Positions 48,501-51,885 of a DNA stretch of 64,000 bases are shown in pieces. A program made the position numbers and the translations under genes. The stretch covers positions 160,487-224,486 of the forward strand of contig JADJWX010000028.1 of NCBI GenBank assembly GCA_016716135.1, read 5' to 3'. Numbering within the stretch: the first letter of the stretch is position 1; every line of letters starts with the position of its first letter. Under the pieces are notes generated by a model. That model was given only the letters and a program-made list of their open reading frames with translations. It was not told where the DNA came from and ran no database searches. Source of the stretch: Lewinellaceae bacterium (GTDB taxonomy: Bacteria; Bacteroidota; Bacteroidia; Chitinophagales; Saprospiraceae).

Positions 48501-48647
48501 GGTTGTGTTTGGATTGCGAAAAAACCAATTGCAAACAAATAGTTTTTATTTAAAAGAAATTAAAACACAAAGTGCGTTATTTTTGCTGCAGGATTCATGC
48601 TTGGCCCGGATCCGATTTTCAAAAATGAAAACGCCGCAAGCGGGTTT

Positions 48648-49109
48648 ATGAAAAAGTCAACGGCAAACATCCAACCACTGCCGGTACCGCAGTTCGACGA
48701 ATTTGGCTTCGTTGAGCCGGCCACTCCGGCGCCGATGGAACCGCATATTCCAATGCGTGAGCAGTTTCCGCCTGCAGGTTCCGACTACATGGGCGGCCGG
48801 AGCGACGGCTGGGAATACCGCAGCGTTTTTGCCGGCACAAAGTTGGCATCCACTTACGAGATGGTGAAACAGTTTCTGCGCGAAGAAGGTTACGGCAATG
48901 TCCCGATTCCGGAAACAGTAGAAGAATTACGGCTGTTCAGGCGGCCGCGCAACCGGCAGTTGCAGCTGTTTGCAGAACAAGGGTACAGCCACAATCCGGT
49001 CCGGATTTTATTCCCTCCGGCCGGTCCGGAACGCAACGCCCTGATTTTATGCCTGTACAACGAACAGGCCGAGGGCCATTTATTGCGGTTTCACGGTGTC
49101 TTGAAATGA
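48648..49109 (+). CDS. Hypothetical protein
   Basis: The ORF is 153 aa from MKKSTANIQP, or 170 aa from 48597. I recognise no motif. Codon composition is similar to the neighbours, and a hairpin at 49139-49167 follows. Confidence 0.4.
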   Translation: MKKSTANIQPLPVPQFDEFGFVEPATPAPMEPHIPMREQFPPAGSDYMGGRSDGWEYRSVFAGTKLASTYEMVKQFLREEGYGNVPIPETVEELRLFRRPRNRQLQLFAEQGYSHNPVRILFPPAGPERNALILCLYNEQAEGHLLRFHGVLK

Positions 49110-49311: not shown

Positions 49312-49887
49312 TTAATTGAAATACACTTTCAGGGCTTGGAGGAAGTTATCTTTCTGACCGGCAGAGACTGTGAGTGTGACGCTGTTTTGCAGGACGACGT
49401 GCCCGCCTTTTCCCCGCACATATTTTTTAATGTGGCGCAAGTGAATGGTGTGCGACCGGTGAATGCGAACAAAAGCCGCGCCCGGTAAAAGGCCCTCCAC
49501 TTCCCGCAGCGTTTTACACACCAGAATCTGCCGGCCATCAAGAAAGTGTAATACCGTATAATTCCCGCTGGCCTCAAGGTAAGCGATATGCTTAACCTTC
49601 TCGAAACACATGCCTTCCATGGTAGGCAGCACAACTTTACCGCCTTTTTCCGGCGTGCCGAAACGGGCTTGTTTTAGCGGCGTCTCCTGGTAGCCGGGTC
49701 CAATCGGAATGGCGCGGGCAACTCGGGTTGGTACGGGCGATTCTACGGCATTCATCATAGCAGAGCAATTTTGTAAATGTTGAGACAAAAGTACCGGCAC
49801 GGGACTTGCTCCCCAACCCAGGTTCTGGCAATAAGTCAGGTTTCCGATAGGCTCGGTAGGTTTGGTGAAATGATCAAAAACTGACAA
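49312..49887 (-). CDS. LytTR-family DNA-binding protein without a receiver domain
   Basis: The C-terminal ~100 aa is IAYLEASGNYTVLHFLDGRQILVCKTLREVEGLLPGAAFVRIHRSHTIHLRHIKKY, a LytTR domain. The N-terminal ~90 aa is unrecognised. Confidence 0.75.
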   Translation of the reverse strand: MSVFDHFTKPTEPIGNLTYCQNLGWGASPVPVLLSQHLQNCSAMMNAVESPVPTRVARAIPIGPGYQETPLKQARFGTPEKGGKVVLPTMEGMCFEKVKHIAYLEASGNYTVLHFLDGRQILVCKTLREVEGLLPGAAFVRIHRSHTIHLRHIKKYVRGKGGHVVLQNSVTLTVSAGQKDNFLQALKVYFN

Positions 49888-49941
49888 TTTTGTCGACGCC
49901 TGCTCGTCTTCCGACCCGGTTCAAGTGACATATCCATACCT

Positions 49942-51489
49942 ATGGCAAAAACGCCTTCCGAAAAATTGTACCGCCTGATACAGGGGCTGACGCCTGCAGA
50001 AAAGCGCTATTTCAAGCTTTTTATCCGGGGCAAACCCGATCGCGACAGCAAGTACCTCCAGTTGTTTGAAGCCATGGGAAATATGGCACAGTTCGACGAT
50101 GAGGCACTTCGTAAAATCATTTACCCCGATCAGGCGGTGGAGAGCCGGAAGTATTCGGAGTTGAAGGCCTATTTGTACGAGTTGCTGCTGAAAAGTTTGC
50201 AATCGTTCGACGAGCAACACGCCATTGATTTTCGCATCAACCATTTGTTGCAGAGCGTTGCCGTATTATTCCGGCGCAGCCACTACGACGCTTGTGAGGA
50301 ATTGCTTGAAAAGGCGGCCAAACTGGCCCGGCAGTACGAGTGTTTCACACAACTGCTCGAAGTTATTCGTTGGAAAAAACACCTGGCCTACACCCGGATG
50401 GACGTCGATTATTTGCACAAGCATTTTGACCAACTGCAGTACACCGAAACCCAGGCGCTGGATCAGCTGCGCAATTTTGCCGACTACCGGAAATTGTTTT
50501 TTCAAGTGTACACCACCATCAAACGCGAGGCGCAGCACCGGGGAGAGGAACGCATGCGGCGCTTGCAAAAGCTGGTTGGGCATGAACTGCTCAGCAGCAC
50601 CGATCAGGCGCTGTCGCACAAAGCCCGGGTGTTGTACTACCGCACCCTCAACCTGTATTTTTATGCGGCCCTGGAACTGGATCAATTTTATGATACCGGG
50701 AAAAAACTGTTGGAAATTCTGGAGTCGCAACCCCATTTTTTAAAAGAAAACCTCTCCGATTACATTGCAGCACTCAGCAATTTCATCTTGTCCTGTGGTT
50801 TGTTGAAACGCTACGACGAAGTGCACACTGCGTTGAATAAACTCCAGATATTGAAGCCGTTAACAGAAGATGACCGCCGAAAAATCCACCGGCAATACTA
50901 TACCAACAAGTTTGTCCTTTGCATTTTTACCGGCGCATTTGAAGACGCCCGGCAGGAGATGGAGCATTGCCAGCAAGAGGCTGAACAATTTGACCCCCAC
51001 GACTATGAAACGGCCAGTTTTTATTTTCAATATTGTTGCATTTGTTTTGGTTGCGGCGATTACAGCGGCGCCCTCGACTACCTCAACGAATGGCTCAACC
51101 AGCCCCGCACGGTGGAGCGGGAAGATCTGCAGAGTCTGGCGCGTATGCTCGCATTGATTATCCATTTTGAAATGGGGAATACAGTTCTGTTGGAATCTTT
51201 GCTTCGTTCCGCCACCCGTTTTTTGCAAAAGAAAAACCGCCTCTACGATCTGGAGCGGCGGTTCTTTCAGTTCATGGCCGAATTGATGCGCGCAGCAGGC
51301 AGGCCTGAACAACGGCTTGCCTTTCAAAAAATGCAGCAGGACCTCCGGGAACTGGCCAACTGGCCCGAAGCGCAGGCGCTGTTGCAAACATTTGACCTGG
51401 AAGCCTGGCTCGAAAGCAAGCTTACCCAGCGCAACTTTGCACAAACTGTGCGCGCCAAGTGGCACAGTCAACGCAATGCGACTGTTTAA
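49942..51489 (+). CDS. 515-aa all-alpha (TPR-like) protein of unknown function
   Basis: The N-terminus is KLYRLIQGLTPAEKRYFKLFIRG...YLQLFEAM, followed by long helical repeats. It is divergent from the LytTR gene across a 54-bp spacer. Confidence 0.6.
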   Translation: MAKTPSEKLYRLIQGLTPAEKRYFKLFIRGKPDRDSKYLQLFEAMGNMAQFDDEALRKIIYPDQAVESRKYSELKAYLYELLLKSLQSFDEQHAIDFRINHLLQSVAVLFRRSHYDACEELLEKAAKLARQYECFTQLLEVIRWKKHLAYTRMDVDYLHKHFDQLQYTETQALDQLRNFADYRKLFFQVYTTIKREAQHRGEERMRRLQKLVGHELLSSTDQALSHKARVLYYRTLNLYFYAALELDQFYDTGKKLLEILESQPHFLKENLSDYIAALSNFILSCGLLKRYDEVHTALNKLQILKPLTEDDRRKIHRQYYTNKFVLCIFTGAFEDARQEMEHCQQEAEQFDPHDYETASFYFQYCCICFGCGDYSGALDYLNEWLNQPRTVEREDLQSLARMLALIIHFEMGNTVLLESLLRSATRFLQKKNRLYDLERRFFQFMAELMRAAGRPEQRLAFQKMQQDLRELANWPEAQALLQTFDLEAWLESKLTQRNFAQTVRAKWHSQRNATV

Positions 51490-51509
51490 GGTAAATTACA
51501 CCGTGTAAT

Positions 51510-51716
51510 CTAGGCAGATTTGTTACCCATGCGTTGCCAGATGGATTCCGCTTCTTCAGAACGGGTATCCACCGACGTCCAGCGCGTGCGATAGGAAAAC
51601 CGGCGGCCGCGAATGATGTAGATACCACCCTTCAGCTGGTTCATTTCCTGCTCGTCAAGCGTGGTCACAAAACTGTTCACCTTGATGTCGGAAAGAGAGA
51701 GTTTAGATTTTGCCAT
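51510..51716 (-). CDS. Gly-Gly-leader peptide precursor (Bacteroidota GG-type natural-product or bacteriocin-like leader), 68 aa
   Basis: The leader MAKSKLSLSDIKVNSFVTTLDEQEMNQLKGG is followed by the 37-aa core IYIIRGRRFSYRTRWTSVDTRSEEAESIWQRMGNKSA. The leader fits the K.L.L....I..L...E...IKGG pattern of Bacteroidota GG-leader peptides. Confidence 0.6.
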   Translation of the reverse strand: MAKSKLSLSDIKVNSFVTTLDEQEMNQLKGGIYIIRGRRFSYRTRWTSVDTRSEEAESIWQRMGNKSA

Positions 51717-51768
51717 ACGATATGGAGGTTTGAATGAACGGAGCAATAACATTCCCGTTCTTTGGATT

Positions 51769-51776
51769 CAAAGATA
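51769..51776 (-). promoter_or_regulatory. Bacteroidota -7-like promoter box (TATCTTTG) upstream of the GG-leader peptide
   Basis: It matches TAnnTTTG on the - strand, 52 nt upstream of the ATG at 51716. A second, near-identical TATCTTTC box lies 6 nt further upstream. Confidence 0.4.
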
Positions 51777-51885
51777 TCTGAAAGATACTTACCCTGCCAG
51801 CAGGTACGTTTGCCAAGTTTTTGAAAAAGTCAGGTTTTTAAAAACAGAAATTGGCGGCTCGCGACCCCATCCAGGGGATTATTTG

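Follow-up and report, generated by a model that had tools for sequence, protein, structure and literature searches.

Signaling by ribosomally made peptides is well known in Firmicutes. There, and in phages, the RNPP systems (Rgg/SHP, ComR/XIP, PlcR/PapR, NprR/NprX, Rap/Phr, and AimR/AimP) place a cytoplasmic protein related in fold to tetratricopeptide repeat (TPR) proteins beside a small peptide gene, and group III Rgg/SHP pairs are also convergent. In streptococci and lactobacilli, the ComC-ComDE, BlpC-BlpRH, and PlnA-PlnBCD systems combine a peptide with a Gly-Gly (GG) leader and a LytTR protein in one locus with a shared upstream element; LytTR domains are proven DNA binders, typically of direct repeats, and autoregulate (AgrA, ComE, BrsR). 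Here, we describe a three-gene module in a 64,000-nucleotide (nt) stretch of the genome of a Lewinellaceae bacterium (contig JADJWX010000028.1; the whole stretch is called the window hereafter), in which a GG-leader peptide gene converges on the gene of a 515-amino acid (aa) all-helical TPR-like protein, which is in turn divergent from a stand-alone LytTR gene. The module has the look of a peptide-associated regulatory circuit not yet described for Bacteroidota: an earlier note on this stretch had remarked that no comparable peptide-sensing circuit was described in this phylum, and our literature search likewise found neither such a module nor any account of signaling by ribosomal peptides in Bacteroidota. 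We tentatively read it, at somewhat less than an even chance, as a dedicated, self-contained peptide-linked regulatory circuit with its own small regulon and with autoinduction by the peptide.

The one homologous relative that we found is RusR (BT2802), a biochemically uncharacterized candidate activator required for induction of the polysaccharide utilization locus for ribose utilization in Bacteroides thetaiotaomicron (bioRxiv 10.1101/574913; PMC12596196), which is needed for transcriptional activation of its own locus (bioRxiv 10.1101/574913). Residues 3-501 of the 515-aa protein align to positions 3-500 of the 502 positions of the NCBIfam profile NF058569 (BT2802 family; E 3.4e-46), with a score of 158.3 bits that lies far under the 550-bit cut-off, and this was both its sole family match and its sole named relative. 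The protein is hence a distant full-length RusR relative that falls outside the family by the NCBI cut-off. The two share full-length homology, size, and an all-helical build, and both are cytoplasmic candidate positive regulators encoded beside their (for the 515-aa protein, predicted) target genes; an outer-membrane TonB-dependent transporter belongs to the RusR regulon and, in several genera, to the predicted regulon here; and RusR's own expression is uninduced, just as the 515-aa gene has a separate canonical promoter. Unlike RusR, the 515-aa protein scores only 158 against the 550 bits demanded (about 25-30% identity), lacks ribokinase, rusC/D, and rusT genes at its locus, and has the genes of a GG-leader peptide and of a LytTR protein as its partners. 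The likeness concerns build and, probably, role.

The likeness to RNPP systems consists of a cytoplasmic TPR-like protein beside a small peptide gene, an operator on that adjacent peptide gene, which suggests positive feedback, and a predicted TPR-like solenoid that may be of the peptide-binding kind. Unlike RNPP proteins, the 515-aa protein shows no sequence homology to them, no XRE-type helix-turn-helix (HTH), and no match to the Rap-type three-helix bundle; the peptide carries a GG leader for a peptidase-containing ABC transporter (PCAT) instead of using Sec or PptAB export; its predicted mature form has ~37 aa versus 5-10 aa; and re-entry into this diderm cell would need an outer-membrane step. 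In its logic, the module resembles a peptide-linked autoregulatory circuit such as Rgg/SHP, ComRS, or Blp/Com. Overall, it belongs to none of the RNPP, LytTR two-component, HdrRM-type, lanthipeptide, TIGR04149, and graspetide families, as each comparison fails on at least one defining feature.

The peptide gene and its helical neighbor

The arrangement of peptide, 515-aa, and LytTR genes proposed in the earlier note was confirmed, including the convergence of the first two with a 20-nt gap between their stops. The elements of the module are:

49312-49758, minus strand: stand-alone LytTR DNA-binding protein, 148 aa (start moved to Met44 of a 191-aa open reading frame [ORF])
49786-49844, minus strand: LytTR promoter (operator and -7 box), from aligned intergenic regions
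49861-49892, plus strand: the 515-aa gene's own promoter, read from the sequence and conserved genus-wide
49942-51489, plus strand: gene of the 515-aa all-helical TPR-like protein, candidate sensor/regulator and distant RusR (BT2802) relative
51490-51509: 20-nt spacer separating the tails of the 515-aa and peptide genes, read from the sequence
51510-51716, minus strand: 68-aa precursor peptide gene, with a 31-aa GG leader and a 37-aa core
51780-51838, minus strand: peptide promoter (operator and -7 box), from a position weight matrix (PWM) and a composite pattern

We found the peptide gene and the 515-aa gene to be paired far beyond chance. Within the genus, the peptide gene was present in 30 of 36 sampled genomes, with similarity extending through the core, and was convergent with the 515-aa orthologue in all 30; the same convergent pairing was seen in every informative locus of other genera found by a peptide profile, and an independent scan of named species genomes had the peptide adjoining the 515-aa gene in 77 of 78 loci. 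Orthologues of the 515-aa protein were found in 97 of 301 sampled Saprospiraceae genomes, representing 59 of 168 genera. Upon inspecting 40 orthologue loci that the peptide hidden Markov model had missed, we found a small convergent GG-leader ORF in 36; overall, the peptide stands tail to tail with the 515-aa orthologue in about 90% or more of the loci across ~59 Saprospiraceae genera. These genome counts cover related genomes, and some locus sets overlap; the named relatives are all uncultured Saprospiraceae/Lewinellaceae metagenome-assembled genomes (MAGs). The trio is a conserved syntenic unit, a point that the earlier note had put forward for checking, and a search for 515-aa and LytTR genes occurring together widely without a peptide showed 515-aa orthologues to be almost never peptide-less.

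Two observations concern copy number and the gap between the genes. In two genomes of one genus (L094, L095; G315, G187), the 515-aa gene is tandem-duplicated, with two full copies and one peptide, and G016 (L086) has a partial second 515-aa copy and a second LytTR gene after the first copy. In the window, a palindrome, ATTACAC-C-GTGTAAT (51495-51509), occupies most of the 20-nt convergent gap and might serve as a minimal terminator in both directions or as a site for protein binding.

The 68-aa ORF is a real coding gene under purifying selection, because the ratio of nonsynonymous to synonymous polymorphism (pN/pS) is ~0.3 at saturated pS (leader 0.34, core motif 0.28; 2556 pairs, with pS saturated at ~0.68). 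The length of 68 aa, the GG leader, and the 37-aa Cys-free core were as first described: the leader MAKSKLSLSDIKVNSFVTTLDEQEMNQLKGG (31 aa, MAKSKL...KGG) is followed by a 37-aa core containing GRRFSYRTRWTSVDTR, and the predicted mature peptide of ~37 aa is IYIIRGRRFSYRTRWTSVDTRSEEAESIWQRMGNKSA. The gene is single-copy in the source genome, an assembly of 6.4 Mb in 31 contigs. Its Lys-Gly-Gly junction does not vary in the genus and hardly varies elsewhere. The cores of the genus follow the pattern G-R-R-x-[TS]-Y-R-T-R-W-T-x-[VI]-D-T-R and then a variable tail; in 72 sequences, the G, R-W-T, and final R of this motif are invariant, and the D is present in 71. Across genera the cores are very different except for a family-wide motif, W-x-x-[IV]-[DE]-[IVT]-R, seen in divergent cores as NWTDIDLR, DWGEIEIR, IWEGVDIR, and NWDDVDIR, with one variant lacking the Trp.

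The all-helical nature of the 515-aa protein was borne out by an AlphaFold2 model, which predicts a TPR-like solenoid of 26 helices (pLDDT 86.8, pTM 0.80). A Foldseek search of the whole model against the PDB returned only generic TPR proteins, none at E ≤ 1e-3, with MalT domain III at rank 5, NprR at rank 45, and LGN and KLC1 also listed, and a sequence search of the PDB with a 48-sequence profile found nothing below E 0.02. The conserved N-terminal 70 aa form four short helices (pLDDT 81) that had no fold match in the PDB (best E 1.9), and a recognizable N-terminal HTH was accordingly dropped as a candidate. The earlier comparison with RNPP-type peptide receptors did not hold at the level of sequence or of a recognizable N-terminal HTH, and in fold it came down to generic TPR matches. 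The gene has a promoter of the canonical Bacteroidota type, with a -33 TTTG (49861-49864), 20 nt, and a -7 box CAATTTTG (49885-49892), which is conserved across the genus and independent of the operator geometry described below.

Outside this module, full-length RusR-family relatives of 25-31% identity turned up in 206 of the 401 Bacteroidia genomes sampled, often with several copies per genome. Among 29 inspected loci of such other family members, none had a leader peptide and one had a LytTR neighbor. That the family is peptide-free at those loci, and that the sugar-sensing, TPR-like MalT domain III ranks among the top fold matches, both favor a serious rival to autoinduction, in which the wiring is the same while the 515-aa protein senses another cue (for example, a small metabolite, as proposed for RusR) and the peptide is an exported effector without feedback, switched on together with surface proteins and acting, for instance, as a toxin of the microcin kind, as a surface-active peptide, or as a signal for another receptor. 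We consider this rival unlikely overall, though by no means negligible: the pairing is strict and always adjacent over ~59 genera, with the cores diverging alongside the regulator, which is unusual for a target gene alone, whereas the other regulon members are unlinked and lineage-variable. Hence, because of this one-to-one adjacency, the operator on the peptide promoter, and a fold that may be of the peptide-binding type, we favor a partnership between the peptide and the 515-aa protein, for which peptide sensing by the latter is plausible and an autoinduction loop would be the most economical version.

The shared operator and its regulon

Upon aligning the 5' regions of the peptide genes, we found a strongly conserved element, tCAGAAACCTGACTTTT..AAAAA.TTGG. 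A -7-type TAnnTTT box follows at 45-47 nt from the C of CTGAC, a distance that also holds for genera with unalignable surroundings, and this element recurs with the same +46 spacing upstream of the LytTR gene. On the peptide side, the operator AAAACCTGAC (51838 to 51829) is followed by TTTTTCAAAAACTTGG and by the -7 box TATCTTTC (51787 to 51780), 46 nt from the C of CTGAC; on the LytTR side, the operator core GAAACCTGAC (49844 to 49835) is followed by ...CCTGGGTTGG and by the -7 box TACTTTTG (49793 to 49786), at the same 46 nt. The earlier note had given the peptide gene a TAnnTTTG box of its own, and such a box does exist (TATCTTTG, 51776 to 51769), but the one at the conserved distance is the neighboring TATCTTTC. 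The operator consensus can be written as tCAGAAACCTGACTT[T/A]T, ~8 nt, TTGG. A loose core pattern was found on the peptide side in 133 of 152 loci and upstream of the 515-aa gene in 138 of 154, with a chance expectation of ~8% per locus; some of these loci come from the same genomes, fetched twice.

Because a -33 element is missing on the peptide side (on the LytTR side, a -33-like TTG lies 20 nt from the -7 box), the arrangement fits an activator-dependent promoter with a factor at about -60 to -35. Sigma-54 and extracytoplasmic function (ECF) sigma factor promoters were rejected as readings, as the -12 GC is unconserved and a sigma-A-type -7 box stands at the fixed +46. An operator shared by the peptide and LytTR genes is the wiring that would be expected of an autoregulated peptide circuit.

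The operator is rare in the genome. A first, 34-nt PWM ranked the peptide promoter as the top genome hit (44.7 bits, the next at 24.9) and was too strict, missing the LytTR-side site, and a composite IUPAC pattern, RRAACCTGACTTWN{36,38}TANNTTT, was used instead. This pattern hit exactly three sites in 6.4 Mb, the reversed control none. Two of them are the LytTR and peptide promoters; the third (contig C17:82046-82102) lies upstream of the gene for a ~940-aa protein with a type IX secretion system (T9SS) C-terminal sorting domain (CTD). Five other genomes of the genus gave one to three composite hits each and none with the control, namely the module promoters and the same T9SS protein family; the site at the T9SS-CTD protein is kept in G005, G001, and G009 (two loci), with a shorter paralogue in G025. 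In the source genome, this T9SS gene (C17:79498-82102) is broken up into two short ORFs (72 and 100 aa) and an open frame of 806 aa, the orthologue in G005 being a single frame of 936 aa; the broken gene is either a pseudogene or an assembly error.

A relaxed operator pattern gave the following counts:

97 module-bearing genomes, relaxed operator pattern: 196 hits, 2.0 per genome
204 other genomes, relaxed operator pattern: 30 hits, 0.15 per genome
All 301 genomes, reversed control pattern: about 51 hits, 0.17 per genome

At least one hit was present in 82 of the 97 module-bearing genomes. The operator is restricted to genomes that carry the module and is at background level in the rest. Near the 29 distant RusR-family genes of other families, the operator gave 8 hits versus 7 for the control.

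We fetched 20 extra operator sites from nine genomes of six other genera. Five of them lie upstream of an orthologous three-gene operon (L318-L322; G113, G260, G248, G105, G244) found in five genera. Its products are a TonB-dependent-receptor-like protein of ~1225 aa whose N-terminus is of the CarboxypepD_reg type, a protein of ~1350 aa whose C-terminus is of the T9SS type, and a PorV/PorQ-family protein of ~350 aa (NF033709, 128 bits, cut-off 90); we are aware of no account of these three genes as a unit. Four others precede genes of ~485-aa GWxTD-domain proteins (L300, L301, L308, L314; TIGR04514, 50.5 bits, cut-off 28), which carry a signal peptide and are operator-linked in several genera, and one precedes a gene for another T9SS-CTD protein. 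A full-text literature search for "GWxTD" found no paper. In the source genome, the GWxTD orthologue (C11:253033-254600) has a one-mismatch operator that is the second-best PWM hit genome-wide, and the orthologue of the TonB-dependent receptor gene (C12:6441-10115) has no operator, so membership of the receptor in the regulon is lineage-specific. The predicted output of the regulon varies by lineage and consistently comprises envelope and secreted proteins.

The position of the operator also bears on the LytTR gene itself. Orthologue conservation of the 191-aa LytTR ORF (from a TTG at 49887) starts only at residue ~38-44, and its supposed N-terminus holds both the conserved operator and, with no mismatch, the -7 box TACTTTTG, followed by ATGATG. 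For these reasons, we place the start at the ATGATG at 49758, which predicts a 148-aa protein and makes the 191-aa ORF over-extended; the divergent spacer, previously put at 54 bp, becomes 183 bp with this correction. The protein contains Pfam PF04397 as its only domain (residues 50-143, at about E 5e-15 to 9e-15), which confirms that it is receiver-less, and the locus has no histidine kinase. This sets it apart from ComE/BlpR/AgrA-type regulators, with their receiver domains and kinases. A receiver-less LytTR protein is likewise seen in HdrR and BrsR, but the membrane inhibitor partner of the HdrRM/BrsRM systems is absent here and the LytTR gene is instead divergent from that of a soluble 515-aa protein.

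LytTR is an accessory part of the module, because about half of the more distant genera have modules without it. Its gene stands divergent to the 515-aa gene in 20 of 20 loci of the genus, 17 of 20 in a first batch from other genera, and 72 of 74 named loci, while in a second, more distant batch it was adjacent in only about half, with housekeeping genes such as nadB in its place. Genera with a LytTR-less module nonetheless keep the operator, the peptide, and the extra sites. A search of five genomes with such a module found no stand-alone LytTR orthologue bearing the operator: of four hits read in sequence, three were receiver-containing LytR-type regulators next to kinases and the fourth was one operator-less stand-alone LytTR (G125), and the remaining hits had frames of 244-327 aa, consistent with receiver-containing regulators (one of 164 aa). 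A relocated LytTR gene was rejected on these grounds.

This distribution matters for the identity of the protein that reads the operator. The operator sequence can be taken for an imperfect palindrome (ACCTGACTTTT / AAAAnTTGGT), but also for a weak direct repeat (AAACCTGAC / AAAnTTGGn, period 17-18), which would equally suit the LytTR protein. Moreover, we recognized no DNA-binding fold in the 515-aa protein: Pfam returned no HTH and no RNPP family, and its N-terminal domain had a best PDB match at E 1.9. These two points, together with the operator on the LytTR gene itself and the adjacency in 20 of 20 genus and 72 of 74 named loci, speak for an alternative in which LytTR is the autoregulating, operator-binding activator and the 515-aa protein a Rap-like modulator that keeps LytTR inactive until bound by the peptide, in the style of Rap/ComA/Phr or of LytTR-regulatory systems. 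We regard this alternative as rather improbable, given that the operator, peptide, and extra sites are kept in LytTR-less modules without an operator-bearing stand-alone orthologue in the five searched genomes, and that LytTR sites usually have a period of 21-22 bp, not 17-18 bp, and the second repeat is poorly conserved. The period, the dispensability of LytTR in many lineages, and the phylum likewise separate the module from Firmicute LytTR circuits. Since the 515-aa protein is the sole module protein that always accompanies the operator, we consider it the likelier operator-binding factor, at somewhat better than even odds; the LytTR protein is an unlikely reader, and another factor is less likely still.

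A further ORF of 170 aa (48597-49109, plus strand) lies between cinA, which together with recX is a further neighbor at the locus, and the LytTR gene. Pfam and NCBIfam gave no match for this ORF, which is kept in the same position in several genomes of the genus (L068, L075, L079, L080, L087) at 58-87% identity.

Predicted export and possible maturation and feedback of the peptide

The leader suggests how the peptide may leave the cell. The earlier assignment to TIGR04149 fell short (18.6 bits, under the 25-bit cut-off), and the leader instead matches the NCBIfam model NF038180 "leader_pinensin" over positions 1-28 of 28 (44.5 bits, cut-off 24). Its likeness to the pinensin precursors of Chitinophaga over all 28 positions marks it as a GG leader of the Bacteroidota style and implies the same kind of exporter. 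As the earlier note had observed, the window has none of the enzymes expected of such a pathway: profile searches of the window gave no match for a C39 peptidase, LanB, LanC, radical S-adenosylmethionine (radical-SAM; PF04055), or ATP-grasp_4. A search of the whole genome for a PCAT found, on another contig (C9:197661-201152), one C39-peptidase ABC exporter together with an HlyD-like partner. All 97 module-bearing genomes have a C39 domain versus 108 of 204 others, a comparison that is purely descriptive, as the genomes are related and those with the module tend to be larger.

The match to a lanthipeptide-leader model also raises the alternative that the peptide is the precursor of a RiPP (a peptide made on the ribosome and modified after translation), with the 515-aa protein as a new leader-binding scaffold or maturase. 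The core has an invariant short motif, which is common at modification sites, and a strict adjacency of precursor and partner is typical of RiPP clusters. Yet the locus differs from pinensin and TIGR04149 peptides in its Cys-free core, unconserved Ser/Thr, and absent LanB/LanC or radical-SAM partner. No core contains Cys, neither among the 30 genus orthologues nor in other genera; the genome has no LanC; and LanB-like sequences are limited to degenerate fragments at contig ends, so that a lanthipeptide was rejected. A radical-SAM RiPP was rejected on the sub-threshold TIGR04149 score and the lack of a radical-SAM partner in the window, the nearest PF04055 match lying ~56 kb off. The graspetide crosslinks once considered for this core failed as well: across genera Ser/Thr is unconserved and only an acidic residue is conserved, and there is no ATP-grasp_4 match on the window's contig. 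In addition, the 515-aa protein is a pure helical repeat without a catalytic domain, the studied relative of which is a regulator, and the genes are convergent, not co-transcribed. We consequently hold the RiPP alternative to be very unlikely. Automated annotation would nonetheless call the peptide a "pinensin family lanthipeptide", which is contradicted by the Cys-free core.

The Lant_dehydr_N-like fragments are located close to contig ends (C30:5367-7789, C29:5985-7583), with degenerate frames and with flanks that look like near-copies of one another; probably they are what is left of a lanthipeptide cluster, or else a collapsed repeat.

The export route also bears on the serious rival introduced above, in which the peptide is an output without feedback. 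A GG leader, an unlinked PCAT, and a TonB-dependent receptor in the regulon of several genera together make up the toolkit of class II microcins of Enterobacteria (e.g., colicin V, with a CvaAB-type PCAT), and the strongly conserved core motif suits a fixed molecular target better than a pherotype. As a toxin, however, the peptide would be atypical: no immunity gene lies beside it, it is single-copy and vertically conserved instead of being patchily transferred, it is tied to a regulator while its exporter is unlinked, and co-inducing an uptake receptor for its own toxin would harm the producer. A bacteriocin hence fits poorly.

Under our favored reading of an autoinducing circuit, the 515-aa protein would be made from its own canonical promoter and would serve as sensor and regulator, acting on DNA or through RNA polymerase at the operator located ~-60 to -35 of activator-dependent promoters. 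These promoters would drive the convergent peptide gene, the divergent LytTR gene, and envelope genes elsewhere: in the source genome, those of the T9SS-sorted ~940-aa protein and the GWxTD protein, and in other genera the TonB-dependent receptor operon as well. The genome's C39-peptidase ABC exporter would export the peptide and cut it after the Gly-Gly, and the mature ~37-aa peptide, with its W-x-x-phi-D/E-phi-R motif, would feed back on the TPR-like domain to close an autoinduction loop, with LytTR as a frequent, lineage-specific second-tier regulator. We infer four of these steps, namely the identity of the operator binder, activation from the operator, export and cleavage of the peptide, and its action as a ligand. 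A more specific version, in which the peptide is taken back by the co-regulated TonB-dependent receptor/PorV-like complex and binds the RusR-family TPR domain, making this the first peptide autoinduction system in Bacteroidota to have a cytoplasmic receptor, with parts unrelated to the RNPP systems of Firmicutes, is less likely than not.

Several points weigh against an autoinducing circuit, besides the direct-repeat form of the operator and the lack of a recognized DNA-binding fold. At ~37 aa, the mature peptide would be long for a pheromone that is taken up again, and no importer for the inner membrane was found. Peptide quorum sensing usually shows diversified pherotypes, unlike the core motif here, which hardly varies across genera. 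The PCAT gene lies apart from the module and has no operator, 4 of the 40 inspected orthologue loci had no detectable peptide, and module-bearing genomes tend to be larger.

Possible significance for Bacteroidota signaling

The module provides a concrete candidate for cell-cell signaling in Bacteroidota, with a defined operator, a peptide motif, and a predicted output of T9SS cargo, a TonB-dependent receptor/PorV-like operon, and a GWxTD protein. Activated sludge is rich in Saprospiraceae. Module-bearing MAGs appear to come from there, several isolate names among the relatives suggesting a wastewater or activated-sludge origin, and a circuit that controls surface proteins could bear on floc formation, predation, or hydrolysis behavior.

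Furthermore, the module offers a first genomic handle on the possible mechanism of RusR-type regulators, a family that roughly half of the sampled Bacteroidia genomes encode and that includes a gut colonization fitness determinant in B. thetaiotaomicron. If the more specific version with re-uptake of the peptide is true, the large RusR family would gain a general mechanism, as ligand-gated activators with a new DNA- or polymerase-binding N-terminal domain.

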